From positions 1-39,052 of the forward strand of contig JAIRWS010000040.1 in NCBI GenBank assembly GCA_031268855.1: a stretch of DNA of 39,052 bases, written 5' to 3'. Source of the DNA: Candidatus Margulisiibacteriota bacterium (GTDB lineage: Bacteria; Margulisbacteria; Termititenacia; Termititenacales; Termititenacaceae). The position numbers and the translations under genes are program-made. The notes beneath the pieces are model-generated. The model did no database searches. It was given only the letters and a program-made list of their open reading frames with translations, and had not been told where the DNA came from. The number at the start of each line of letters is the position of its first letter. The stretch's first letter is position 1. Of the stretch, positions 73 through 33,319 are shown one piece after another.

Positions 73-1824
73 TTAAAGTTTATCAATTCTATCTTTAAGA
101 TGGCTTATAAAATCTCCATATTCAGTTTTAATATCATTTTTACTGACAGCTTTCATGATTTCATTTTTCATACTCTGCTTCTCTTCTTTGTTTCCATTAG
201 TTACAGTTTCGATATTCTCAATGGCACTTTTTTTCTCATTGTATACAAAAGTTGAACCGTCTTTGTTTATGTAATTAGTAATTAATTTCGAAGATATAAA
301 ATCTTCCATCGTTGAAATATCTTTTACAACGTCAGCATATGCTAACCACGATTCCGAAAACTCAGGATAAGCATTAACAAATTCATTCCGTTTACTATTG
401 GATACTGTATCAGAATCCGACACAATAATAAATTTCTTATGTGCGAGAATTAAAAGTTGCACTAGACACTCTACACCGGAAATACCCTTTAAATAAACCA
501 TGCCAATGTTTTTAAAATCGTTCACTTTTTTATTAAAAGCACAATATTTTTGAAAAAGCTCTTTATCAAGCCATCCTTCAAAAATAATATTTTTGTCTTG
601 TATACATTCAAAAATACTTGCGCCAATAGCATTCCGCAGTAATTCATCACTACTAAACGGCGCTTTCCGATCTGGTTTTACTGCTGTAGTAACATCATCT
701 TTTTTTTCAACAACCAAATGTCGATCTATGCAATTTGAATCTATCATATATTGTGAATGAGTAGAGTAAATCATCTTTGCATGTTCGCTTATTTTTAATA
801 ATTCATCCCGCAAATATCGCGCACTTGTAGGGTACAAACTCTGATCGGGTTCATCTATTAAAATAATATCTCGTTCACTCATCATATTGGAACGATCTTT
901 GGTAGATAACATCAACAATATACTAATGAATTTTTTAAATCCATCGCTCCTGTCTTCAAAAGAGTATTTCGTCTCATTAACTACTTTTATAGAAATTTCA
1001 TCGCCATTTGGGCGTAGCTCAATAGAAGTGTCTTTAAAGTCTTTCCATATCTTACGGAATGTCTGTGTTACGGTTTTTGATATTTGGCTTAATAAATTTT
1101 CATAATCTCCATCCTGTGATTTTGCATCTGAAAATTCGTTCTTAATATTTTCACGTTTGCACAAGACAAAAATATTTTCTAAAGATCTGTATTTGGTAGG
1201 ACTTGCGATGAAATCAGCAATAACTACACTATTTGATAACAAGGTCTTCTCATCATATTGCCAATAATGGCATCGATATACATTTTCCTTGTACAGTTCT
1301 TCGATTACTTCAAGGATACATGCCTGTAAGTTTTGTTCTGCGCCTACTACCTCTGTAGTAAACGATTTTCCACTAAGATACACCTCTTTTTCACATTCAA
1401 AATCTGTTCCAGAATAGCTCCCATAACTAAAATGTACTTTTTCATTATTCGCAATATCAATTTGAATTAAATATTCATAAAAAACAGATTTTATAAAATC
1501 TCGAATCGATTTATGACTTTTAAAAACAATACATTCTGTATTTACATACTTCGCTTTGAATCGACTCAATACGTCATCAATATCTTTTTCCGACAATTTC
1601 AGTATTGCTCGAACAAAATAATTCTCTATTTTTTCATTATTTATTCGTTTTCTTCTATCTTTATCTGATACTATATATTGTCCAAACACTGCCGCGATTG
1701 CTTTCAAAATATTACTCTTACCTGCTTCATTCTTGCCAAGCAAAATCAAGCAGTTATTATCAAATATGATAGTCTGTGATTTAATAGAACGAAAATTTTC
1801 AATCTCTATTTTAGTTAGTTCCAT
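73..1824 (-). CDS. OLD-family ATP-dependent nuclease (N-terminal ABC-type ATPase + C-terminal Toprim; GajA-like architecture)
   Basis: 583-aa ORF with AAGGAG about 8 nt upstream of the ATG. Walker A LLGKNEAGKS. Walker B/D-loop IILIDEPDQSLYP followed by STHS. C-terminal Toprim-like acidic motifs IIFEGWLD and FIIVSDSD. The gene is visibly far more AT-rich than the rest of the window. Confidence 0.75.
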   Translation of the reverse strand: MELTKIEIENFRSIKSQTIIFDNNCLILLGKNEAGKSNILKAIAAVFGQYIVSDKDRRKRINNEKIENYFVRAILKLSEKDIDDVLSRFKAKYVNTECIVFKSHKSIRDFIKSVFYEYLIQIDIANNEKVHFSYGSYSGTDFECEKEVYLSGKSFTTEVVGAEQNLQACILEVIEELYKENVYRCHYWQYDEKTLLSNSVVIADFIASPTKYRSLENIFVLCKRENIKNEFSDAKSQDGDYENLLSQISKTVTQTFRKIWKDFKDTSIELRPNGDEISIKVVNETKYSFEDRSDGFKKFISILLMLSTKDRSNMMSERDIILIDEPDQSLYPTSARYLRDELLKISEHAKMIYSTHSQYMIDSNCIDRHLVVEKKDDVTTAVKPDRKAPFSSDELLRNAIGASIFECIQDKNIIFEGWLDKELFQKYCAFNKKVNDFKNIGMVYLKGISGVECLVQLLILAHKKFIIVSDSDTVSNSKRNEFVNAYPEFSESWLAYADVVKDISTMEDFISSKLITNYINKDGSTFVYNEKKSAIENIETVTNGNKEEKQSMKNEIMKAVSKNDIKTEYGDFISHLKDRIDKL

Positions 1825-1847
1825 ATCAAAATTCTCCTTTATAAATA

Positions 1848-2331
1848 TTAAATTTTAGCATTTTCTCCCTCAAACACCTCTCCCAGCACCGCCTGCTTCA
1901 GGCCCTCTACCTGCCCTCTACGTTCTTTCACCTGCATTTCCAAATCATCAACCCAATTCAGCAATTTTTCAACCCGCTCAACAATGACACGCTGTTCAGC
2001 AACCGATGGGAGAGGGAGAATAGCCGTTGAAAGCAATTTTTGATTCAAATTGTCCATTGTCTGCCCTATCGAATTTTGTAATAAATACGTTTGAAAAAAC
2101 TTTGGCAGCAACAAAAATAGTTCCTAGAGCAAATTTGCTTTCTTGGTAATGAACATGGTTTAGAGCTTTCTTGTCATGTCCGGTTGATGACACTAACGGT
2201 ATGCAAACCGCTTCCGTATCGAATTGAGTTGTTACTAAAGAATATTTTCCTGGTATTGCACTTGCCAGACCGGTTTTACCTTTTATAATATTGCAAGGAG
2301 AGCCTATTGGGCATGTCTCCCACTCACTCAT
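1848..2331 (-). pseudogene. hsdS: Type I restriction-modification specificity subunit remnant (half-size, frameshifted)
   Basis: Two overlapping ORF fragments lie in different frames (1996..2352 and 1848..2114). The first reads like an HsdS target-recognition domain (SEWETCPIGSPCNIIKGKTG...). The second reads like the conserved HsdS helical region (LPLPSVAEQRVIVERVEKLLNWVDDLE). One frameshift near 2100-2114 is needed to join them. Only one TRD is present. Confidence 0.65.
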
Positions 2332-3703
2332 TCCCCGCCGCCTTTGCCACATATTTCTGCCTACGGCTATTCGGCTTATCGGGAATAGTGCGAATTAGTA
2401 ATCCTTCCTGTAATAACGGCTGAAGAATTTCTAAACGAAAATGTTCACGATGTTTCAAGCCAAGATACGCCTGGATTTCTTCCCTGCTCCTTGGGATAGA
2501 ACAAAATTCAAGTATCGTATTTTTTTTGCCCTCATCGACTTGCGCGGTGACTTGCGCGGTGACTTGCGCGGTATTTTTGTCAGCATCAGGATACCGATAA
2601 AATATCGCGTGGACAAAAGTGGAAAACTCATACTGCAAGGGCGGCAGACCGGCATCGGCAAGCATTTTCTGCATCCGCAAAATACCCGTTCCCATTTTTT
2701 CGATATATTCGAGACGCTGCATTAAGTTGGCAATATTCGGATTACGCAAAACACTTTCTTTGCCAAAATTTTCCACTTTTAATCCCCTGGGCAGGCCGCC
2801 CGGACTAACGATTTCCACACGGTCATCAAAAATTTCCACCATCACATTGGCGCCTTTTTCAAAATAATCGCGATGGATCACAGCATTGATGACAGCTTCA
2901 CGCAGCGCTTCGTAAGGGATTTCCGGTATTTCGATACGCGCCGGCGAGCCGTCAAACTCATAACGCAAATTAAGATGCCGTTTCAAAAAAATCATCGCCT
3001 GGTCAATGTTATCGACAATATCGGCATTAAAATCTTTACGGTCGAGGACTGTAACCTTATCGCGCCCCTTAAACAGCACGCAAGTTACCGTGGTATGAAA
3101 GAAATGATGCTCAAGGTTTTTGGCAAAAAACAATACAGCGGTGTTGTAATAATAACACTGGTCAAATTGCGTTTCTGCCGCGTGTAGATTTTTGAGTATT
3201 TCATTGGTGGCCAGCACAGACGAAATACCGGCAAGTTTCAGGAAACGGTGAAATTTTTCCCCATCAAAATCTTTCTTTTGAAAATCACGATTAACGAGTT
3301 CATCAAAACGGATTTTCCCCTCGGACTTTACAAACTCGATAATTTCATCGCGCTTCATTTTTTGGGAGTTTGGGCCAACCCGGTTATAAAAGCCTGAAGT
3401 GCAGCGATACGGTTTATCCGTCCCTTCCCGGACTTCAATAATGAGTATGTTTTTATACTTGCGGGAGATGATCTTCACCGGCGGGTCGCAATTTTGCGCA
3501 ATGTCCTGGATCTGCGACAATAATTTGTTATCTATTTCCAGACCGACAACCTTGTTTTTATCGCCGATGCCAAGATAAATGAATCCACCTGATCCATTGG
3601 CAAAAGCGACCATTTCTTTATCAAGATTGGCGCATTGTTCCTTAAATTCAATGCGGTAACCTTCGCCCTGCTCCAGTATATATTTCAATTCCTGCTCGTT
3701 CAT
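2324..3703 (-). CDS. AlbA_2 (Schlafen-like) domain / HATPase_c_4 / C-terminal wHTH putative DNA-binding protein (COG2865-type)
   Basis: 459 aa. N-terminal AlbA_2-like EGYRIEFKEQ...VAFANGSGGFIYLGIGD. Central REAVINAVIHRDYFEKGANVMVEIFDDRVEIVSPGGLP. Winged-helix-like tail. Its start codon abuts the hsdR remnant stop, and its stop overlaps the hsdS remnant. Confidence 0.7.
   Translation of the reverse strand: MNEQELKYILEQGEGYRIEFKEQCANLDKEMVAFANGSGGFIYLGIGDKNKVVGLEIDNKLLSQIQDIAQNCDPPVKIISRKYKNILIIEVREGTDKPYRCTSGFYNRVGPNSQKMKRDEIIEFVKSEGKIRFDELVNRDFQKKDFDGEKFHRFLKLAGISSVLATNEILKNLHAAETQFDQCYYYNTAVLFFAKNLEHHFFHTTVTCVLFKGRDKVTVLDRKDFNADIVDNIDQAMIFLKRHLNLRYEFDGSPARIEIPEIPYEALREAVINAVIHRDYFEKGANVMVEIFDDRVEIVSPGGLPRGLKVENFGKESVLRNPNIANLMQRLEYIEKMGTGILRMQKMLADAGLPPLQYEFSTFVHAIFYRYPDADKNTAQVTAQVTAQVDEGKKNTILEFCSIPRSREEIQAYLGLKHREHFRLEILQPLLQEGLLIRTIPDKPNSRRQKYVAKAAGNE
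2537..2572. repeat. Perfect 3 x 12-bp tandem repeat (gacttgcgcggt), in frame inside the AlbA_2 gene (encodes AQVT x3)
   Basis: Read directly from the sequence. The translated product shows NTAQVTAQVTAQVDEG in the linker before the C-terminal wHTH. Confidence 0.95.
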
Positions 3704-11034: not shown

Positions 11035-11117
11035 TTGACAGCTATTTTACAGCGAAGAGCGCGGTTATATCAAATTTCGCGCGCGGAAACGGCCGTGGCT
11101 TAGTTTGCTATATTTTT

Positions 11118-11148
11118 AACTATTTTATACCAGTAGTATAAAATAGTT
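11118..11148. repeat. Palindromic element copy 1 (13-bp arms, 5-nt spacer: aactattttatac-cagta-gtataaaatagtt)
   Basis: Perfect inverted repeat read directly from the sequence. Lies in the divergent rel / DUF4143 intergenic region. Contains TTAACT-17-TAAAAT promoter-like hexamers on both strands. Confidence 0.9.
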
Positions 11149-11152
11149 AAAT

Positions 11153-11187
11153 TTGACTTTTTTATACCAGTAGTATAAAATAGTCAA
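11153..11187 (+). promoter_or_regulatory. Palindromic element copy 2, containing a near-consensus promoter (TTGACT-17 nt-TAAAAT) ending 8 nt before the ATG
   Basis: ttgacttttttatac-cagta-gtataaaatagtcaa, 15-bp arms with 1 mismatch. -35 at 11153..11158 and -10 at 11176..11181. ATG at 11190 with no Shine-Dalgarno, which suggests a leaderless or near-leaderless mRNA. Confidence 0.55.
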
Positions 11188-11189
11188 AT

Positions 11190-12407
11190 ATGGCCAAAGT
11201 TAAAAGAAATATTTTAGCGGAACTCCTTAAAGAATTCGCTTTGCCGCAAATCTCGATCTTGTTGGGGCCGCGGCAGGTCGGCAAAACCTTCCTGCTAAAA
11301 GAACTGCATCGGGAAGCCCAAAAACGCCAGCTGCGCTGCAGCTATTACAATCTCGAACTGCCGTCCGATAATTTAAAATTCAACCAAGATGAGGCCGGTG
11401 TGTACAAAATGCTGACCACCAATACCGCTGTGCTTTTTATTGACGAATTTCATTATTACCCGAATATTTCCAAACTATTCAAAGCCATTTACGACAGCAA
11501 TAAAAAAATAAAAATTTTTGCGTCCGGCTCGTCATCAATAGAAATACATAAACACCTCAAAGAAAGTCTGGCTGGCCGGCGGCTGGTCACTAAAATAAAT
11601 CCGCTGACCCTGACTGAATACGCGCAAAAAAACAAAACCCGAAATCCCGCTAAAACGCTTGACGAATATCTGGTCTATGGCGGGCTGCCCGGATTGGTGC
11701 ACGCCGATAACAAAGAGCACAAAATACGGCTGTTAAACGAACTGCTGGAAACTTATATCCAAAAAGACATCAAATCCCTGCTCAAGGAAGAAAATATCCG
11801 CGCTTTTAATAATTTGCTGTATTTGCTGGCCGAACGACAGGGCTCGCTGATCTCCGTCAATAACCTGGCCAATGAAATCGGCCTGACCAGCCGCACTATC
11901 GAAAAATATCTAACGCTTCTGGAAAACACTTATACTTGTTTCCCGCTCGGCTCATATTCCAAAAATATCGGCAACGAATTAAAAAAATCCCGCAAGTTTT
12001 TTTTGTACGATTTCGGCATTCGGAATACTATACTGAAAGATTTTTCCGCCAGCCGCAGCAGAAAAGATTTTGGCGCTATTAACGAGTCTTTTGTCTTTTT
12101 GAATTTGCTCTGGCAATTGCAGCCTAATATGGAGCTGCGTTTTTGGCGGGACAAATCCGGCAACGAGGTGGATTTTGTCCTGCTCGTTGACCGCCAGCCA
12201 ATACCAATAGAAGTAAAAACAACCTGGTCGGACGCCGGCATCCCGCAAGGTCTTAAAGCCTTTCTCAAACGTTACCCCGCCACAACCCAAGCGTTTGTCC
12301 TATCAACGAATTATATTGGCGTGGCTAAATATAAGAATACCAAAATCATTTTTATGAAAACCGTGGCTTGCCTGAATTTGCAAAACTTCACCAAGGAGCA
12401 TTTTTGA
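11190..12407 (+). CDS. AAA+ ATPase with C-terminal DUF4143 (PD-(D/E)xK-like) domain
   Basis: 405 aa. Walker A GPRQVGKT, Walker B LFIDEF. C-terminal EVDFVLL...IPIEVKT, typical of AAA_14 + DUF4143 proteins. Confidence 0.8.
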   Translation: MAKVKRNILAELLKEFALPQISILLGPRQVGKTFLLKELHREAQKRQLRCSYYNLELPSDNLKFNQDEAGVYKMLTTNTAVLFIDEFHYYPNISKLFKAIYDSNKKIKIFASGSSSIEIHKHLKESLAGRRLVTKINPLTLTEYAQKNKTRNPAKTLDEYLVYGGLPGLVHADNKEHKIRLLNELLETYIQKDIKSLLKEENIRAFNNLLYLLAERQGSLISVNNLANEIGLTSRTIEKYLTLLENTYTCFPLGSYSKNIGNELKKSRKFFLYDFGIRNTILKDFSASRSRKDFGAINESFVFLNLLWQLQPNMELRFWRDKSGNEVDFVLLVDRQPIPIEVKTTWSDAGIPQGLKAFLKRYPATTQAFVLSTNYIGVAKYKNTKIIFMKTVACLNLQNFTKEHF

Positions 12408-12438
12408 CTTTTTTATACTACTAGTATAAAAAAGTCAA
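12404..12438. repeat. Palindromic element copy 3 (perfect 15-bp arms: ttgacttttttatac-tacta-gtataaaaaagtcaa), overlapping the DUF4143 stop codon
   Basis: 32 of 35 nt identical to copy 2. Sits between the convergent DUF4143 and acyl-CoA ligase genes and could also serve as a hairpin terminator. Confidence 0.9.
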
Positions 12439-12447
12439 AAGGGGGAA

Positions 12448-16470: not shown

Positions 16471-16599
16471 TTCTGCCTCCTTATTAAAAAGTTATTAAAA
16501 TTATAACAAGCTTTAATTTTTTTTAAAGTACTATTAAAAATATCAGTCAATATCTTGGCAATCCTTTAGTAACGGCTGGACTGTATTATTACTTCATCA

Positions 16600-16664
16600 G
16601 AAAATCAAATGACTTACTTTATAGTATTATCTTTTCGGTCACCAATATACAGCGGATTATTGTC
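16600..16664 (-). repeat. Displaced duplicate of the yhaM-like gene 3' end (16 codons + stop + 14 nt)
   Basis: 58 of 65 nt identical to 16715..16779. On the minus strand it reads DNNPLYIGDRKDNTIK-stop, against DNNPLYIGDQKDNTIK-stop in the intact gene. The copies are 115 bp apart. Confidence 0.9.
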
Positions 16665-16728
16665 TCTCACTCAACTTCGCTTCGCTTGTTAAGTTCGAGC
16701 AAAAATGTGTTTCCGAAAATCAAACGAC

Positions 16729-17697
16729 TTACTTTATAGTATTATCTTTTTGATCACCAATATACAATGGGTTGTTGTCAAACATAAAAGCTCTGGCTGT
16801 CCAATTGCCGTCCGCCGGATTTTTTTCGACAAATTCAGCAAAGCCAACCAGTTTAGCGTCAATATTATCGATGTGATGCAAAGCAATGGCTTCTCTGGTC
16901 ATGGGCGTTTTGGGCGAACCAAATTCCTGCTGGCCGTGATGCGAAAGTATCAAATGTTCCAGCAGCATTTTTTTCTCCAGCGGAAACCCGGGCAGCTGGC
17001 GGATCTTTTCCTGCAAAATCTCCAGCCCCAGACTGATATGCCCGACCAGCCGGCCGGTATCCGTGTAGCCAAAAGACATTCCGGCGTAATCAAGCTCGCG
17101 GGTTTTGCCGATGTCGTGAAGAAACACGCCGAGCAGAAGCAGGTCTTTATTCAACGGATACTGCGCCGCGACAAACAAAGCCAAATCCAGCAGCGCCGCG
17201 GTGTGCTCGAGCAGACCGCCGAGACAGGCCGAGTGGACATTTCGCGCGGCGGGGGCTTTGGCAAAATCAGCCAGAAGTTTGGCGTCAGACAAAAATAATT
17301 CGGCCAGTTTGCGCAAATCCGCGTCGCCAAGCCCTAGCAGAATATCCTTTACTTTTTGCAGGGTCTGCGGAATGTCTTTTTTGGTCTGGCGGATAAAATC
17401 GCCAGGGTCATATTCGTCTGCCGCGGCCAGCCTGACCTGGCCAATATTGAACTGCCGCTTGCCTTTGTATTCACCCAGCGCGCCGCGGACTTTGATCACG
17501 GAGTTTTCCTGTATCCGCGGAAATAACTCCGTGTGCTCTTTCCAAATATTGGCTTCCGTCTCGCCGCTGGCATCGACCAAATGGACATTGAGATACGGCT
17601 CACCGTTTTTGGTGGTTTTTTCCTGCCGCCGCGCCACGGCCAAAAAAGTATCCGTTGTTTCGTTCAATTTTAGATCTTTGAGCAGAGGCTTGGTCAT
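16729..17697 (-). CDS. yhaM: 3'-5' exoribonuclease YhaM-like (OB-fold + HD domain)
   Basis: 322 aa. N-terminal OB-fold (KNGEPYLNVHLVDASGE...IKVRGALGEYKG). HD domain with FLHDIGK and SHHG. Confidence 0.8.
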   Translation of the reverse strand: MTKPLLKDLKLNETTDTFLAVARRQEKTTKNGEPYLNVHLVDASGETEANIWKEHTELFPRIQENSVIKVRGALGEYKGKRQFNIGQVRLAAADEYDPGDFIRQTKKDIPQTLQKVKDILLGLGDADLRKLAELFLSDAKLLADFAKAPAARNVHSACLGGLLEHTAALLDLALFVAAQYPLNKDLLLLGVFLHDIGKTRELDYAGMSFGYTDTGRLVGHISLGLEILQEKIRQLPGFPLEKKMLLEHLILSHHGQQEFGSPKTPMTREAIALHHIDNIDAKLVGFAEFVEKNPADGNWTARAFMFDNNPLYIGDQKDNTIK

Positions 17698-24054: not shown

Positions 24055-25340
24055 GTCAGCAGTTTCGCTTTCAGAATATAGCCTTCCGCGCCAACGATCT
24101 TAGCGTCAGCAAACTGACCTGGAACACAGCGGGACGTGAGATTCACACCGCCGTCAATATCCGGCGCTTCGCACTGTGTGCGGCCAAAAAAAGGCATATC
24201 CATTAAAATTTTCACTTGCTTACCCAGCATCTTTTTATTCTTCCTATCTGTTACTCTGCTTTGCGCATCCGTTAATTCGGCCACGCGGTTTTCTTTCACC
24301 GTCCGCGGCAGCTGTCCTGTCAGAGCCGCCGCTTTCGTGCCTTTTTCCCGGCTATAGGCCAGAACGCCTACTTTACTAAACTCATACTCCTCAACAAAAT
24401 TTTTTAATCTGGCAAAATCGGCCTCGTCTTCCCCCGGATACCCGACAATAAAATTAGTGCGAATGGCAATGTCAGGAATAAACTCCCGGAGCAGCTTGAT
24501 CTTTTGTTTGATCAATTTCTCCGAACTATCCCGCCCCATGCGCGTCAAAATTTTGTCCGCGATATGCTGCAGAGGCATATCGAGATAATGGCAGACCTTG
24601 CTGCTTTCCGCCATTACCTGTAATATTTCCGGCGTAACCCGTTCGGGATACGCGTACATGACCCGTATCCATTCCAGCCCCGCGATTTTCTCCAGAGACC
24701 GCAACAAATCCGCCAGACGATATTCGCCGCAAAGATCTATACCATAAGAGGTAGTATCCTGCGCCACCAGAGAAATTTCGCGCACTCCTCTGGCAACTAA
24801 ACATTCAGCTTCTTTGATAATATCATTTTTTTGCTTCGAGCGGTAGCCCCCTCGCAGGCGCGGTATCGTGCAAAAAGCGCAGGCATTGTCGCAGCCGTCA
24901 GCGATCTTGAGATAGGCGCTGTGCGGCAAAGTCGCGGGGAAGCGGAACTCCTGTCTGGTCAAAATTTTCGGCAGGGACGCCAAAAACTGGCCGTCTTTCT
25001 CGACAGCCTCAACGATATTTTGCGCCGAACCGACGCTGACTATAGCGTCGATCTCTGGATATTTTTTGAGCAGTTTGGCTTTTTCGCGCTGCACCAGACA
25101 GCCAGCCGCAATGATTTTGCCAAAGTAGCCCTGTTTTTTGAGCGCGATCAATTTCTCTATCTCCGCCTGGGCTTCCCGCACGGCGGAATCAATGAACGCG
25201 CAGGTATTGATGAGGGCAATATCCGCTGGCGGCTCGCCGGTCACGATACGGTACCCGCGCGCCCGCAATGCGCCCAGCATCTCCTCGGTATCGGTGAGAT
25301 TTTTCGGACAGCCAAGACTGATGGGGAAGACGGAGGGCAT
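24051..25340 (-). CDS. rimO: Ribosomal protein S12 methylthiotransferase RimO (radical SAM MTTase)
   Basis: 429 aa. N-terminal ISLGCPKNLTDTE, radical-SAM cluster CDNACAFCTIP, C-terminal TRAM-like region. Confidence 0.85.
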   Translation of the reverse strand: MPSVFPISLGCPKNLTDTEEMLGALRARGYRIVTGEPPADIALINTCAFIDSAVREAQAEIEKLIALKKQGYFGKIIAAGCLVQREKAKLLKKYPEIDAIVSVGSAQNIVEAVEKDGQFLASLPKILTRQEFRFPATLPHSAYLKIADGCDNACAFCTIPRLRGGYRSKQKNDIIKEAECLVARGVREISLVAQDTTSYGIDLCGEYRLADLLRSLEKIAGLEWIRVMYAYPERVTPEILQVMAESSKVCHYLDMPLQHIADKILTRMGRDSSEKLIKQKIKLLREFIPDIAIRTNFIVGYPGEDEADFARLKNFVEEYEFSKVGVLAYSREKGTKAAALTGQLPRTVKENRVAELTDAQSRVTDRKNKKMLGKQVKILMDMPFFGRTQCEAPDIDGGVNLTSRCVPGQFADAKIVGAEGYILKAKLLT

Positions 25341-25729
25341 TACAGTAATTCTTTTTTTATGCTTCTTTCTAGCTCTCTGGCAAACTCCAAAAAATCACCA
25401 GCCTGTTGAACGGACGGTATACCATCAGGCAATATTCCAAGTTCGCCGGGGTAGCGTTCTTCAATATAGGTTTTATTTATGAGAGCTAGTAAATCTTCAT
25501 TAATTTTCAAATCTTTTATCTCTTTAATCATGCCATACAACAAAATCAAATCATGAGTTTTGATTATCGGTTTATCTTTCTCCAGTAAATAGGCCTTAAA
25601 GTATTTTTCTATTGCCTGCTGACAATGAAACGCTACAATATTTGTCAGGGACTGGCCTTTGTTTGTTTCTATGGCAGCTGCTATGTCTTTTTCCGCGTAT
25701 AGAATCCAGGCTTCAACAAACTTTTTCAT
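25340..25729 (-). CDS. HEPN-domain protein (toxin partner of MNT), copy 1
   Basis: Likely start is MKKFVEAW at 25729; the track ORF extends to 25753. HEPN-like FHCQQAIEKYFKAYL...KTHDL...EERYPG. Overlaps the upstream NTase gene by 17 nt. Its TAA stop shares one nt with the rimO ATG (TAATG). Confidence 0.75.
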   Translation of the reverse strand: MKKFVEAWILYAEKDIAAAIETNKGQSLTNIVAFHCQQAIEKYFKAYLLEKDKPIIKTHDLILLYGMIKEIKDLKINEDLLALINKTYIEERYPGELGILPDGIPSVQQAGDFLEFARELERSIKKELL

Positions 25730-26054
25730 ACAACACCTTTCCCGTGTTTTCAATTTCTTTAAGAAAAAAACTGCCGTTATTTTTTAGCACAGCCAATTCT
25801 CCTCTGGAATAAACTAAAAGGTCTAAAGCTTTTTCATAATTTATTTTTCGCACCAATTTATGCACTGCCAAAAATCTTTGCGCTCTTTCTCCATAAGTCC
25901 GCGCGACATTATTATCATCAAGCACGACCATTAAATCCACATCGCTGTCCGGCCCGGGATTGCCTCTGGCATAGGAGCCAAATAAGACGATCTTGTAGGG
26001 ATCAGAGGCTTTGAGCTGGCGCACTAGATCATTGATAATAGTCTGGGTTTTCAT
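25713..26054 (-). CDS. Minimal nucleotidyltransferase (MNT antitoxin-type), copy 1
   Basis: 113 aa. Pol-beta-type NTase motif LFGSYARGNPGPDSDVDLMVVL. Confidence 0.8.
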   Translation of the reverse strand: MKTQTIINDLVRQLKASDPYKIVLFGSYARGNPGPDSDVDLMVVLDDNNVARTYGERAQRFLAVHKLVRKINYEKALDLLVYSRGELAVLKNNGSFFLKEIENTGKVLYEKVC

Positions 26055-27684: not shown

Positions 27685-28182
27685 TTAACGGTAATTTGTA
27701 AACGTCAGAGCAAGCCCCAGGCTGCCGCTTGCGCCACGCAAAGCCTGAATGACTTTTTGCAGATCGTCCTTGTTTTTGCCGGAAACGCGCACGGCCTCGC
27801 CCTGTATTTGGGAATTAACTTTTAATTTTAAATCTTTAATATACTGATTTAGCTCTTTGGCTTTTTCGCGGTCAATGCCTTTTTTGATTTTTACATTCTG
27901 CTTGACCGTCCCGCCCAGCGCGTCCTCGGTCTTTTGGCCAAAATCAAAAAACGCCAGATCCACGCCCTGCTTGATCGCCTTTTGTTTGAAAATATCGAGC
28001 ATCGCGCCGACTTTGTAATCATCCTCGGCTTTAAACAGCAACTCGAGATTGTTTAATTCGATAGAAGCGGCGCTCCCGCGAAAATCATAACGCGCGGCAA
28101 TTTCTTTGCGCGCCGTATTCAGCGCGTTATTGATGAGCTGCAGATCCGGCTCGGAAACCACATCAAAAGAACTATCCGCCAT
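27685..28182 (-). CDS. yajQ: YajQ-family nucleotide (cyclic-di-GMP)-binding protein (UPF0234)
   Basis: 165 aa. SFDVVSEPDLQLINNALNTARKEIAARYDFRGS is the typical YajQ N-terminus. Confidence 0.88.
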   Translation of the reverse strand: MADSSFDVVSEPDLQLINNALNTARKEIAARYDFRGSAASIELNNLELLFKAEDDYKVGAMLDIFKQKAIKQGVDLAFFDFGQKTEDALGGTVKQNVKIKKGIDREKAKELNQYIKDLKLKVNSQIQGEAVRVSGKNKDDLQKVIQALRGASGSLGLALTFTNYR

Positions 28183-28194
28183 AAGTAAATTATA

Positions 28195-28239
28195 TCACAA
28201 AATTATTGTCCGGCTGCCGCAGACGAACAGCCAGTCATA
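28195..28239 (-). pseudogene. Displaced duplicate of the purU 3' terminus (14 codons + stop)
   Basis: The minus strand reads YDWLFVCGSRTIIL-stop, against HDRLFVCGKRTIIL-stop at the real purU end. 28201..28238 is 33 of 38 nt identical to 28935..28972. Confidence 0.85.
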
Positions 28240-28275
28240 AACATGTTATGTTATAATTATAGGCGAGGTGTTCTA

Positions 28276-28542
28276 GTGCGCGAAGTGAGTTTTACTAATT
28301 TTTCTCAGAATTTACAAAAGTATCTGGGAAATACAGAGGCGGATAATGTGACTATCGCCAAAAATGGAGTGCCCGTATTGAGGATTGTTATGGATGACGC
28401 ATACCATAAAAACAAATTAGTCAAACCAGAAAATAATCAGGTTTCCATATCTCAGCAATTACTTGGCGTAGCGGCAGGCATCAACATGTCTTTAGAGGAA
28501 TTAAAAGCTGAGCGCCTAGCTAAATATGAACATACTGCTTGA
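28276..28542 (+). CDS. Phd/YefM-like antitoxin (partner of the PIN toxin)
   Basis: Start taken at GTG 28276, which has GAGGTG 5 nt upstream; a TATAAT at 28252..28257 lies inside the longer track ORF. N-terminal VSFTNFSQNLQKYL...VTIAKNGVPVLRIV resembles Phd/YefM. Overlaps the PIN gene by 17 nt. Confidence 0.6.
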   Translation: MREVSFTNFSQNLQKYLGNTEADNVTIAKNGVPVLRIVMDDAYHKNKLVKPENNQVSISQQLLGVAAGINMSLEELKAERLAKYEHTA

Positions 28543-28939
28543 TACAAACATTATTCTGGATGTACTGCTAAAACGTTCTCCGTTTTATATTGAGGCTCTA
28601 AAGATTTTTGAACTGGCGGAAACTGGCAAAATAAATGGTTTTATTTCCGCAACAACATTTACCGATATTTATTACCTCGTGCGTAAGGCGGTTGGCAATA
28701 AAAACGTACAAAAAATTTTACACCAGCTTACAACCATTTTTACAATTTTAGCAGTGGCCGAGCCGGAAATTTTGAACGCTCTTAATTTGCAATGGAAAGA
28801 TTTTGAAGATGCGGTGCAATATGCAACTGCGCTGGGCGCTCAAATGGACGGCATTGTCAGCCGCAATAAACAGGATTATCAGAACAGCAAAATTCCGTTG
28901 TACGAACCAGCGGAATTTTTACAAAAAACTATAGAATAA
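28526..28939 (+). CDS. vapC: PIN-domain ribonuclease toxin (VapC family)
   Basis: 137 aa. N-terminal ILLDTNIILDVLL with the first PIN acidic residue. Later acidic positions occur in ...TDIYY... and ...FEDAVQ.... Confidence 0.8.
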   Translation: MNILLDTNIILDVLLKRSPFYIEALKIFELAETGKINGFISATTFTDIYYLVRKAVGNKNVQKILHQLTTIFTILAVAEPEILNALNLQWKDFEDAVQYATALGAQMDGIVSRNKQDYQNSKIPLYEPAEFLQKTIE

Positions 28940-29738
28940 TTGTCCTCTTGCCGCAGACGAACAGCCGGTCATGCAGAAAACAGCGCGCGGCTGCGGACAA
29001 AACCTGTCTTTCCAGATCGCGGCCTTTGGTGATCAGATCCGCGACCGTGTCGCGGTGGGAGATCTGCGCGACGTTTTGCTGAATGATCGGCCCTTGATCC
29101 AGATCCGCGGTGGCAAAATGCGCTGTCGCGCCGATGATCTTCACGCCGCGCTGGTAGGCCTGATGATACGGCTTCGCGCCTTTGAAAGCCGGCAGGAACG
29201 AATGATGAACGTTAATTATCTTATACGGATAAGCCTTGATGAACGCCGGACTTAAGATCTGCATGTAACGCGCCAGAATTATTAGATCCGCTTTTTTGGC
29301 TTTGAGCAGAGTGAGCTGTTTTTTTTCGTCCTGCGGCAGGCAGTAAAACTCCTGGCCAAAAGTCTCGGCGACATAGCGCAAATCCTCATGATTGCTGACG
29401 ATCGCCGCGATGTCGCAATTCAATTCGCCGCTTTTGTTGCGCAGCAGCAGATCATATAAACAATGGTCGTATTTGGAAACAAAAATCACCGCGCGTTTTT
29501 TTTGATCGGAAAAAGAAACCGCGATATCGCCGAATTTTTTTAAAGCGCCGGGGATTTTTTCGCGCGGCAGTTTGAAACCAGCAAGGTCCCACTCCAGCCG
29601 CATGAAAAACCGCCTGGCCGCCGGATCGGTGTATTGGTCGAGATTGACTATATTGCCGTTATTTTGCGCGATAAAATTTGTTACGGCGGCGACAATGCCG
29701 CGGCGGTCACGGCAGGTCAGCCTCAGTATGGCGTTCAC
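28929..29738 (-). CDS. purU: Formyltetrahydrofolate deformylase
   Basis: ACT domain (ILRLTCRDRRGIVAAVTNFIAQNNGNIV) plus formyltransferase core (INVHHSFLPAFKGAKPY). Likely start is GTG at 29738, with GGAGA 7 nt upstream, overlapping the dapB TGA stop (GTGA). The track ORF extends to 29819. Confidence 0.85.
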   Translation of the reverse strand: MNAILRLTCRDRRGIVAAVTNFIAQNNGNIVNLDQYTDPAARRFFMRLEWDLAGFKLPREKIPGALKKFGDIAVSFSDQKKRAVIFVSKYDHCLYDLLLRNKSGELNCDIAAIVSNHEDLRYVAETFGQEFYCLPQDEKKQLTLLKAKKADLIILARYMQILSPAFIKAYPYKIINVHHSFLPAFKGAKPYHQAYQRGVKIIGATAHFATADLDQGPIIQQNVAQISHRDTVADLITKGRDLERQVLSAAARCFLHDRLFVCGKRTIIL

Positions 29739-30469
29739 AGTAGTTTCTCCAAACCATAGAGCAGGCCGATCCGACCGCTGATTTTTTTGCAGGCTAGAAG
29801 CACGCCGGGCATAAAACATTCTCTGTTGATAGTCTCATGGCGCAAGACCAAACGCTGACCCTGCGCGCCCAGCAAGACTTCCTGTGTGGCGACAAAACCG
29901 GGCAGACGCACGGCATGAATACGCACATTGCCGAGGCTTGCCCCCTGCGAACGTTCAGGCAGAAACTCCTTGCTTTCCACCGCTGGCGGATTGGTTTGGC
30001 CAACCGCTTCATTTATTAACTGAGCAGTTTTGAGCGCTGTGCCGGAAGGCGCGTCGGCTTTGTGGTCATGATGATACTCGACGATTTCCACCGCTGGCAT
30101 ATACCGCGCGGCCTGCGCCGCAAACTGCATCATTAGCACCGCGCCAATAGCGAAATTGGGCGCGATGAGCACGCCGCGTTTAAGTTTTTGACTTTCCGCG
30201 TCGATAGCCTTCAGATCGTCCTCGGTGAAACCGGTCGTGCCGATCACCGCCTGTGCGCCGTTATTGATAATCGCGCGGACATTTTCCATCCGCGCGCTCG
30301 GCTGCGTAAAGTCCACCACGATTTGCGCGCCGGATTTTTTTATCGCGCCGGCTAAATCAGCACCGGCATCGGTCTGGCCGACCAGTTCTAATTCCGCGTC
30401 GGCCTGCACCGTGGCGACCACCGTCTGCCCCATTTTGCCTTGCGCGCCATTGACGAGGATTTTTAGCAT
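29735..30469 (-). CDS. dapB: 4-hydroxy-tetrahydrodipicolinate reductase
   Basis: 244 aa. NGAQGKMGQ nucleotide-binding start and EIVEYHHDHKADAPSGTA signature. Confidence 0.92.
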   Translation of the reverse strand: MLKILVNGAQGKMGQTVVATVQADAELELVGQTDAGADLAGAIKKSGAQIVVDFTQPSARMENVRAIINNGAQAVIGTTGFTEDDLKAIDAESQKLKRGVLIAPNFAIGAVLMMQFAAQAARYMPAVEIVEYHHDHKADAPSGTALKTAQLINEAVGQTNPPAVESKEFLPERSQGASLGNVRIHAVRLPGFVATQEVLLGAQGQRLVLRHETINRECFMPGVLLACKKISGRIGLLYGLEKLL

Positions 30470-30654
30470 ACAGCCTCTACAATAGCGATAGTCGTTTCCG
30501 CCGCCTTCGGACTTTTTAATATAGTGGCCAGCATGTACAGGCCTTTTTCGGTAAAAGCGGTGGGTAAAGCAGGAGAAAATTTAAGTTTAGGGTTATCGAA
30601 AATTTCGATAACCTCGTTTTTCTCGACACCGTCATACGGCACAACATTGTTCAT
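30463..30654 (-). pseudogene. ORF6N-family C-terminal fragment (N-terminal DNA-binding half missing)
   Basis: LPTAFTEKGLYMLATILKSPKAAETTIAIVEAV matches the conserved C-terminal block of ORF6N proteins. The part of the 130-aa track ORF upstream of M68 is not ORF6N-like. Its stop overlaps the dapB start by 7 nt. Confidence 0.5.
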
Positions 30655-30850
30655 GAAATTATTATAACACCGAAATATCTTTAAGCCACTTTCATCACAT
30701 AGATGACCGCAAAATATTTTGGTACTATGGGAACAGCTGTCTGCGGACTGCCGCCGCTGAAAGCTGGCTGCCTTTTTCAATAAAATATGGTTCCTCTGCA
30801 AAACTGTCTGTGTAATCGCTGGCCATAAAAATCCCCCTAAATATATTGAT

Positions 30851-30896
30851 GTCATTTGACATAGTCATATGACATCGGCATAGGACATATTATAAT
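30851..30896 (+). promoter_or_regulatory. Promoter with two 10-bp palindromic operator-like sites upstream of the XRE gene
   Basis: GTCATTTGAC (30851..30860) and GTCATATGAC (30864..30873). ATGACA (30869..30874)-16 nt-TATAAT (30891..30896). The ATG at 30910 implies a very short leader. Confidence 0.5.
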
Positions 30897-32604: not shown

Positions 32605-33006
32605 TTATTTATTCAAGTTCTCCTCCCGTACTGCAACTATTGGAGTAAAATTTTTGACTCGTTCGGCATATTTGACCGCATGCTCAACATTTTTCTCCGT
32701 AATATCCATTTCATAGGGATAACGCGGCTGTACGCCAAATTGCGTCAAAAAACCGCAAATACCAGCCAATTCGTCGAAAGATTTATCTTTTTCTGAGCAC
32801 AAAGCGCAAAGCTCATCTAACTCATGGGTTTTAGGCGGGCGAACATTTCTAGCTATTAAATAACCTTTCAAATATTTTTCTGCGGCTTGTTCGCAATGAT
32901 AACAAATAATTTCATAATGCCTGGGACGCATCTTGCGCAACAATTGAGCCGTGTCTAAATCGGCATCGGCAAAAGACCACCATTCAGAGCTGTTTTCAGC
33001 TGCCAT
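32605..33006 (-). CDS. HEPN-domain protein (toxin partner of MNT), copy 2
   Basis: Start taken at MAAENSSEWW (33006). HCEQAAEKYLKGYL...KTHELDEL...QPRYPY. Overlaps the upstream NTase gene by 11 nt. Confidence 0.75.
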   Translation of the reverse strand: MAAENSSEWWSFADADLDTAQLLRKMRPRHYEIICYHCEQAAEKYLKGYLIARNVRPPKTHELDELCALCSEKDKSFDELAGICGFLTQFGVQPRYPYEMDITEKNVEHAVKYAERVKNFTPIVAVREENLNK

Positions 33007-33319
33007 AAATTTTAATTCCCTCTGTGGCAATAATATTTTCCAAAGATAGTTCGGCTTTACGCCGCTCAAAAACACTTTTTCTGCCGATCAACAAATCCAA
33101 CGGGATCGTTTTTTTCTTATAAAGCGTGGCGCGGATTTTTGCGCCAAGTTCAACGGTGTCTGTTTCCGCATCGGGAACAACCACATAAATATCCAAATCG
33201 CTGTCATCTCTCGGCTGACCGCCGGCATAAGACCCAAAAAGATATATCGCCTCCGCCGGTGTGCTGGCTATTACCGAGTTTGTAATCAGATCAATCTCTT
33301 TTTTTACAGCATCTAACAT
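32996..33319 (-). CDS. Minimal nucleotidyltransferase (MNT antitoxin-type), copy 2
   Basis: 107 aa. LFGSYAGGQPRDDSDLDIYVVV. Confidence 0.8.
   Translation of the reverse strand: MLDAVKKEIDLITNSVIASTPAEAIYLFGSYAGGQPRDDSDLDIYVVVPDAETDTVELGAKIRATLYKKKTIPLDLLIGRKSVFERRKAELSLENIIATEGIKIYGS

Follow-up and report, generated by a model that had tools for sequence, protein, structure and literature searches.

How does a small toxin-antitoxin (TA) operon come to lie between two copies of the end of a housekeeping gene, and do such copies mark it as an integrating element? The question is raised by a contig of 39,052 nt from a Candidatus Margulisiibacteriota bacterium of the Termititenax clade (GenBank assembly GCA_031268855.1, contig JAIRWS010000040.1; the whole stretch is referred to below as the window), in which a Phd-like/PIN gene pair separates purU from yajQ and is bracketed by a direct repeat of the purU 3' end. 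We consider it probable that the pair, a predicted working type II TA operon, was inserted exactly at the purU stop codon long ago and has been inherited vertically since, and that the repeat is the footprint of a duplication, not an attachment (att) site. The feature itself is an insertion at the purU stop with a duplication of 44-45 nt, long persistence under selection and turnover of cargo.

The duplicated purU end adjoins the predicted yajQ promoter

The minus-strand order at the locus is dapB, purU, the cassette (itself on the plus strand), the displaced copy of the purU end (the relic), a TATAAT box with 6 nt, and yajQ. The two repeats and the genes that they adjoin are as follows.

28929-28973, minus strand: right repeat, the functional last 14 purU codons and stop, HDRLFVCGKRTIIL-stop, reading cat gac cgg ctg ttc gtc tgc ggc aag agg aca att att cta tag
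28195-28239, minus strand: left repeat (relic), a displaced duplicate, not translated, of the 14 final purU codons and stop, YDWLFVCGSRTIIL-stop, reading tat gac tgg ctg ttc gtc tgc ggc agc cgg aca ata att ttg tga
28929-29738, minus strand: purU (formyltetrahydrofolate deformylase), probably 269 amino acids from the GTG at 29738 (NCBIfam TIGR00655, 353.9 bits)
28183-28194, minus strand: predicted yajQ promoter, comprising the -10 box TATAAT (28189-28194) and a 6-nt spacer to the ATG
27685-28182, minus strand: yajQ (DUF520, YajQ-family cyclic-di-GMP-binding protein), 165 amino acids (Pfam PF04461, 191.9 bits; NCBIfam NF003819, 190.8 bits)

A repeat search of the window returned a direct repeat of 38 nt (28201-28238 and 28935-28972) with 33/38 positions identical (87%) and a spacing of 734, confirming the geometry given in an earlier, sequence-only reading of this DNA; extended through the stop codons (28195-28239 and 28929-28973), the copies are identical at 35/45 nt. 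By chance, ~3e-7 repeats of at least 33/38 within 5 kb are expected in the window. The right copy is the true end of purU, as had been proposed, with the NCBIfam PurU match extending to the final residue, and the left copy can indeed be read over its 45 nt, stop included, as a former purU 3' end in frame; three codons upstream of it the frame is closed by a stop codon, after which no start codon occurs. Ten differences separate the copies over the 45 nt, giving three amino-acid changes, three synonymous codons (Arg, Ile and Leu) and one stop-for-stop change (tag/tga), so that the four silent or stop-for-stop differences listed earlier are all borne out. Matches to a terminator-like hairpin within the relic were no more numerous than in shuffled sequence. 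The longest open reading frame (ORF) for purU has 296 codons from an ATG at 29819 and overlaps the dapB 3' end by 85 nt (29735-29819); since the genes of relatives are called or read as 269 amino acids, from a GTG or ATG start that overlaps the dapB stop by 4 nt, the purU start is probably the GTG at 29738.

One part of the earlier description does not hold: the left copy had been called attached to nothing, yet its TGA abuts the TATAAT upstream of yajQ, the joined sequence being TGATATAAT, an extended -10, and in compact relatives this place is taken by the live purU end. The TATAAT stands 6-8 nt before the yajQ ATG and is invariant in all 10 lineages in which it is readable (the window, L002, L003, L004, L081, L082, L084, L164, L165 and L166), where it is mostly preceded by TGn. 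The same element precedes yajQ in L169, a more distant relative without an adjacent purU. We infer that it acts as the yajQ promoter, with the relic next to it. The interval from TATAAT to ATG leaves no room for a ribosome-binding site, and a -10 box only 6-8 nt from the ATG suggests a leaderless or near-leaderless yajQ mRNA, conserved in the clade. The left repeat does belong in part to a yajQ regulatory region, as the sequence-only reading had allowed, yet this region is derived from purU, not unrelated to it.

Junction states in related lineages

The purU-yajQ junction was compared in 12 lineages, window included; the closest relatives belong to Candidatus Margulisiibacteriota and include Candidatus Termititenax aidoneus.

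Compact, single-copy junction: L084, L166 and L164
TA cassette in the same position and orientation: the window, L001 (contig stops within the antitoxin gene), L081 and L082
TA cassette, then a decayed relic fragment, then a homologue of an ORF of 241 amino acids (ORF241): L083
ORF241 alone, the purU stop being followed at once by the relic fragment 'tcc gtttgcgcc': L002
Unrelated ORF of 121 amino acids (ORF121): L003
Real purU end, then a decayed partial relic (read by eye), without cargo: L004 and L165

The site, for which the sequence-only reading had foreseen either an empty or an occupied state in related genomes, is empty in L084, L164 and L166. There, purU ends 7-8 nt before the yajQ ATG, and the Leu and stop codons of purU themselves form the TATAAT (in L084, ...cgg acg att gtg tTA TAA Tttagtct ATG; L166 and L164 are built alike). 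A duplicated structure without TA genes in all relatives, which the sequence-only reading had named as evidence against itself, is borne out in part, by what by eye resembles such a structure in L004 and L165.

The repeat search gave 34 nt at 94% identity in L082, with a spacing that is also 734, and 31 nt at 100% in L081. Because the same structure recurs in independent assemblies, from NCBI and from the Joint Genome Institute (JGI), the repeat is not an artefact of assembly, and with the low chance expectation above, the idea that it is a chance similarity or an artefact, in whose favour only its short length speaks, has practically no probability. The cassette shares its site with other cargo: ORF241 in L002 is flanked by a purU-end repeat of 16 nt, and ORF121 in L003 by one of 14 nt, as compared with 44-45 nt around the TA pair. 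No flanking repeats were found around the homologous Treponema TA loci L167 and L168, whose PIN protein is 53% identical to that of the window. As other cargos have purU-end repeats and the Treponema TA loci have none, the duplication is a property of the site and not of the cassette; as the lengths and boundaries of the repeats differ among cargos, there is no fixed att core.

Two of the junctions may record losses. L002 and L083 share a derived 'gcc' in the relic fragment beside ORF241, and L002 looks like an L083-type array after deletion of the TA pair. The L164 junction corresponds to the 5' part of the real L082 copy joined to the 3' part of the L082 relic; on one reading it is the product expected from recombination between the repeats, and import of a compact allele from another lineage would also be possible. 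In a purU tree (neighbour-joining, midpoint-rooted, 216-765 nt), the compact L084 and L166 are basal, and the compact L164 is nested with L003 and L082 among the duplication-bearing lineages. More distant yajQ relatives (L169 and L170) lack an adjacent purU and so cannot polarise the ancestral state, and a metagenome scan with yajQ yielded one close relative only, L084.

In the T. aidoneus assembly GCA_003864455.1, ORF241 is found on contig 13 (L002, BGZN01000013) and the TA pair on the 1.3-kb contig 188 (L081, BGZN01000188). Allelic polymorphism within one strain was considered and rejected, the purU tails of the two contigs being only 87% identical; the assembly appears to mix two related lineages.

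A predicted type II toxin-antitoxin operon occupies the gap

As the sequence-only reading had stated, the interval between the copies holds one extended -10 and a Phd-like/PIN pair:

28249-28257, plus strand: predicted TA operon promoter, extended -10 TGTTATAAT inside the palindrome TATAATTATA
28276-28542, plus strand: antitoxin, 88 amino acids, Phd/YefM-like N-terminus, GTG start, ribosome-binding site GAGGTG
28526-28939, plus strand: PIN_3-domain toxin (VapC-like), 137 amino acids (Pfam PF13470, 93.1 bits, and PF01850, 34.6 bits, both above their cut-offs)

The extended -10 is conserved in L081, L082 and L083. A simple sigma-70 scan, for which a -35 box was required, made no call at this element, and the putative promoter was read by inspection. 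The ATG at 28243, chosen by the ORF finder, falls within it; the antitoxin genes of relatives begin at the position of 28276. Against Pfam PF02604 (PhdYeFM) the antitoxin scored 23.3 bits, under the cut-off of 29.8, and it had no NCBIfam match. The antitoxin and toxin genes share 17 nt. The toxin domain and the layout of the operon make the cassette a PIN/VapC-type type II TA operon of predicted activity. The acidic residues D6, D12, D47, E79, D92, E94, D95 and D117 are invariant in 14 PIN homologues; the catalytic set typical of PIN domains would lie among them. The G+C content of the cassette is 0.37-0.41, compared with 0.51-0.60 for purU and dapB.

Toxin gene and purU are interlocked. The last 11 nt of the toxin gene overlap the purU end on the opposite strand, such that the PIN stop TAA is the antisense of purU aTT Att. 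The TA-less relatives L002, L003 and L004 have an ATA Ile codon at this place, which would abolish the PIN stop, and the difference between ATT in the live copy and ATA in the relic is therefore explained by ATT supplying that stop. In an alignment made to look for C-terminal clipping by the insertion, the tails of the PIN homologues after P.EF varied by 2-9 residues.

Age of the cassette and selection on its genes

Only 5 close homologues of the PIN protein were found among 5.8 billion proteins, all at purU/yajQ, the next best match being ~55% identical. The Phd-like/PIN_3 pair is present at the junction in four lineages besides the window (L001, L081, L082 and L083). Among lineages, nucleotide identity is 84-90% for the TA genes, 78-95% for the purU tail and 83-91% for the 5' part of yajQ, and synonymous divergence (dS) is 0.35-0.87 for the TA genes versus 0.65-1.0 for yajQ. 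Ratios of nonsynonymous to synonymous divergence (dN/dS) are 0.06-0.09 for the PIN gene, 0.11-0.22 for the antitoxin gene (four lineages) and 0.02-0.08 for yajQ. The TA genes are under purifying selection, and both are maintained. The pair, predicted to be functional, would either have been resident since before the lineages split or have circulated among them for a long time as one allele of the junction. Mobilisation in trans, which the sequence-only reading had offered to account for a cassette without a recombinase, finds no echo in these data: the cassette is seen at this junction only and is nearly as diverged as its flanks.

The Treponema-type loci L167 and L168, which hold the nearest PIN relatives beyond the junction, are two contigs from one JGI sample (3300042615), the identifier of which is near those of three other JGI loci used here, and the NCBI name of the L167 PIN protein gives it as from a Treponema sp. 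metagenome-assembled genome. Their antitoxins align weakly with that of the window (30% over 33 amino acids). Termititenax cells attach to termite-gut spirochaetes, and a spirochaete origin of the cassette is conceivable.

Apparent coding constraint on the relic

The sequence-only reading had concluded from the silent differences that both copies evolved as coding sequence. The synonymous bias that prompted this is real: in 200,000 random placements of 10 changes, no more than three amino-acid changes with frame and stop kept were obtained in 0.7% (P ~0.007), and the equivalent test on the L082 repeat pair gave P 0.002. The conclusion drawn from it does not stand. Relic-specific changes replace the Arg of DRLF (with W in the window and with H in L082 and L083), and as this Arg is invariant in all 12 purU genes, the relic is not under coding constraint.

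The pattern fits exchange between copies. The copies within one genome differ at 10/45 nt in the window, 9/45 in L082 and 0/30 in L081, compared with 14/45 between the live purU ends of the window and L082 and 12/45 between the relics of the same two; with 12/45 differences, the relics do not group together. Within genomes the differences are clustered, 8 of 9 in L082 falling in the first 15 nt and 8 of 10 in the window in the last 20 nt, and the identical tracts between copies span 31/31 nt in L081, 26 nt in L082 and 18 nt in the window. The window relic is a mosaic: its 5' half differs from its own live copy at 2/24 nt, and its 3' half differs at 3/21 from L003 versus 8/21 from its own live copy, with the 3' half (ggc agc cgg ac.) matching the live purU end of the compact relative L084. 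The L082 relic is the reverse, its 5' half differing at 3/24 from L002 and L003 versus 8/24 from its own real copy. These patterns fit a history in which gene conversion acted in patches on the two copies, or in which recombination with a diverged relative replaced one of them, in addition to purely synonymous change in the live copy. A non-coding relic can in this way mimic coding evolution, through exchange with a live copy.

Origin of the duplication

We propose that the locus began in the compact form, in which purU stops 7-12 nt short of the yajQ ATG and its last codons would lie on or directly against the yajQ -10 box. The TA pair would then have been inserted at the purU stop, and the segment shared by the purU end and the yajQ promoter would have been duplicated. 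On this evidence, the left copy is best taken as the original purU end, which stayed with yajQ, and the right copy as the one that keeps purU whole. Retention of the duplication would follow because, after an insertion, purU can retain its complete C-terminus and yajQ its promoter only where the shared segment is present twice; since only duplicating insertions would leave both genes working, three unrelated cargos would come to be flanked by purU-end repeats of differing length. The 44-45-nt direct repeat would thus be a footprint let through by selection, its right copy translated and its left copy a non-coding relic kept beside the yajQ promoter. The two would have stayed alike through purely synonymous change in the live copy and through homologous recombination, by which tracts passed from one copy to the other or came in from related lineages. 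With its repeats and the dispensable interval that they enclose, the junction would be a small hot spot: ORF241 would have been added later inside the relic, the TA pair would have been lost with a scar in L002, L164 would (on one reading) be a precise loss, and L004 and L165 may be further scarred losses.

Several points weigh against this proposal. No standard insertion mechanism yields a duplication as long as 44 nt. The compact state of L084 and L166 is either ancestral or the product of a repeat-mediated deletion, and the lineages are mosaic, L083 and L001 being 95% identical in the purU tail but ~80% over 525 nt; with a short, midpoint-rooted tree of mosaic lineages, the order of gains and losses is uncertain. 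The TA dS is somewhat below that of yajQ, and spread of the occupied allele by homologous recombination is possible. By a rough estimate, the total divergence of the relic is not far below the neutral expectation, and gene conversion is itself deduced from clustering over 45 nt in three genomes.

The sequence-only reading had favoured an incoming element, as in integration at gene or tRNA 3' ends. On that account, a small integrative element with its own purU-like 3' end (attP) integrated at the purU 3' end (attB), the repeats are attL and attR, and the recombinase has been lost or acts in trans. That the TA pair is an insertion of lower G+C stands, and the account would also accommodate the 18-nt identical core with differences on both sides (as in hybrid att sites), the bias towards synonymous differences, and the halves of the window and L082 relics (3' and 5', respectively) that are closer to other lineages than to their own live copies. 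We nevertheless judge it unlikely. The absence of a recombinase between the repeats, remarked on from the start, extends to the rest of the window: among the larger ORFs of the 39 kb (~40, scanned against Pfam), no integrase, transposase or serine recombinase was found, only RecA, and neither tRNA genes nor Rfam matches marking an island site were found in the window. The restriction of the cassette to one locus, its divergence close to that of the host genes, the lack of repeats at homologous TA loci and the differing repeat lengths and boundaries of other cargos all argue against an element with its own att site, as does the position of ORF241 within the relic, where no further complete purU end accompanies it, contrary to what sequential att integration predicts. 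The ATT/ATA difference, moreover, is accounted for by the overlapping PIN stop. A single ancient site-specific integration event is possible. That the junction is a dedicated attachment site, an integron-like array on a protein-gene 3' end at which a recombinase of the host, or one acting in trans, inserts and excises recombinase-less cassettes (TA, ORF241 and ORF121) and uses the purU-end repeats as its sites, seems to us very unlikely. No attC-like inverted repeat suitable for an integron cassette was found at the cassette ends. A transposon or insertion sequence was considered and rejected, the repeat search of the window having found no terminal inverted repeats at the cassette ends and the window ORFs scanned having yielded no transposase. 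A duplication of 44 nt also far exceeds the usual target-site duplications.

The order of events might also be inverted, with a short tandem duplication first uncoupling the purU C-terminus from the yajQ promoter and thereby opening a gap that served as a safe harbour for later inserts acquired by illegitimate recombination. The early-branching L004 and L165, with a real end and a decayed partial relic (by eye) but no cargo, are what such a history would leave, and the three unrelated cargos in the same gap and the entry of ORF241 into the relic itself agree with it. The relic-only states can, however, be read equally well as deletion scars, of which L002 provides one after TA loss; the 16-nt repeat of L002 and the 14-nt repeat of L003 have other boundaries than the TA repeat, suggesting separate events; and in both the window and L082, each with the 734-nt spacing, the TA pair fills the gap exactly, from the purU stop to the first codon of the relic. 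We hold a duplication that preceded the cassette to be as improbable as the integrative element, and an insertion that brought about the duplication remains our preferred explanation.

Other features of the window

Among the housekeeping genes identified by Pfam are relA/spoT, asd, the gene for RNase Y, recA, cinA, pgsA and a radical-SAM methylthiotransferase-like gene, with small accessory genes interspersed. The sequence-only reading had raised the prospect of further cassettes flanked by duplicated gene ends; none was found in the window, the search giving only a 37-nt palindromic repeat, TTTGACTTTTTTATACCAGTAGTATAAAATAGTCAAA, with three copies (92-100% identity), two in tandem at 11115-11188 and one at 12403-12439. 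These lie upstream and just downstream, respectively, of an AAA_14/DUF4143 ATPase gene (11190-12407), another small accessory gene framed by repeats, here of hairpin type. A 68-nt direct repeat (16597-16664 and 16712-16779; 88% identical, its copies separated by 115 nt) occupies the 3' end of an HD/OB-fold gene on the minus strand (16729-17697) and sequence immediately beyond it.

Low-G+C patches beside housekeeping genes (25340-26054 and 32605-33319) hold genes of HEPN/nucleotidyltransferase type. The first contains a HEPN and a nucleotidyltransferase gene, with the HEPN stop abutting the start of the radical-SAM gene at 25340, and the second a HEPN gene (32605-33075) and an adjacent ORF (32996-33319). 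Upstream of dapB, an ORF of 130 amino acids (30463-30855) matches the end of the ORF6N domain only weakly; L001 carries at 238-798 a homologue of 186 amino acids that abuts dapB and has its C-terminal part in common with the window ORF (...FTEKGLYMLATILKSP.AA.TTIAIVE), and the window ORF may be a degraded copy. At the left end, an AAA_15/AAA_21 (AbiEii-like) ATPase gene (73-1824), a small ORF (1996-2352) and a gene for a Schlafen AlbA_2/HATPase_c_4/Fic-like_C protein (2324-3703) follow one another, and 73-3703 may hold a defence-type gene pair.

Comparison with known systems

The cassette resembles VapBC-type TA operons in its small antitoxin gene overlapping a PIN_3 toxin gene, in its own predicted promoter within a palindrome and in the purifying selection upon it; it differs from them in an antitoxin whose Phd/YefM match is under the Pfam cut-off and in a toxin end and stop that lie antisense inside purU. 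As biology, a PIN/Phd pair at such an intergenic site is nothing unusual, and the feature is of modest interest.

Genomic islands and prophages integrate at the 3' ends of tRNA, tmRNA or protein genes and restore them with an element-borne copy, leaving attL and attR. The locus shares with them the flanking direct repeats, one completing the target gene and the other a displaced end. Unlike them, it has no integrase that could be found in the window, no evidence of mobility, varying repeat boundaries and a cargo of 0.7 kb that is as old as the host lineages; direct repeats of a gene end around a small cassette thus need not imply an integrase-borne element. TA pairs are also common in chromosomal integrons, and small cassettes without mobility genes, in tandem in L083 and with repeated sequence between them, recall such arrays. 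Here, by contrast, neither an attC-like repeat nor IntI was found, the cassette has its own predicted promoter, what is repeated is the end of a gene, and the second cassette is embedded in the relic, with no new copy to bound it.

In the literature, no direct precedent was found for TA pairs flanked by duplicated gene ends. The locus behaves like the TA gaps of E. coli and Salmonella, with ccdO157 in folA-apaH, mazEF in relA-mazG and parDE in the same gap in Salmonella; a recent review describes TA loci in plastic gaps between housekeeping genes and the mechanism of TA integration as unelucidated (PMC7167474). As at those hot spots, some relatives have nothing in the purU-yajQ gap and others have different elements there, and mobility genes are absent. 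It is unlike them in its clear 44-45-nt duplication of the upstream gene end, in the likely functional reason for it and in having survived several lineage splits. The plausible reason for keeping the duplication is that the end of the upstream gene adjoins the promoter of the downstream one, and the locus presents its history as a readable series: empty site, occupied site with a 44-45-nt duplication, loss scars and alternative cargos.

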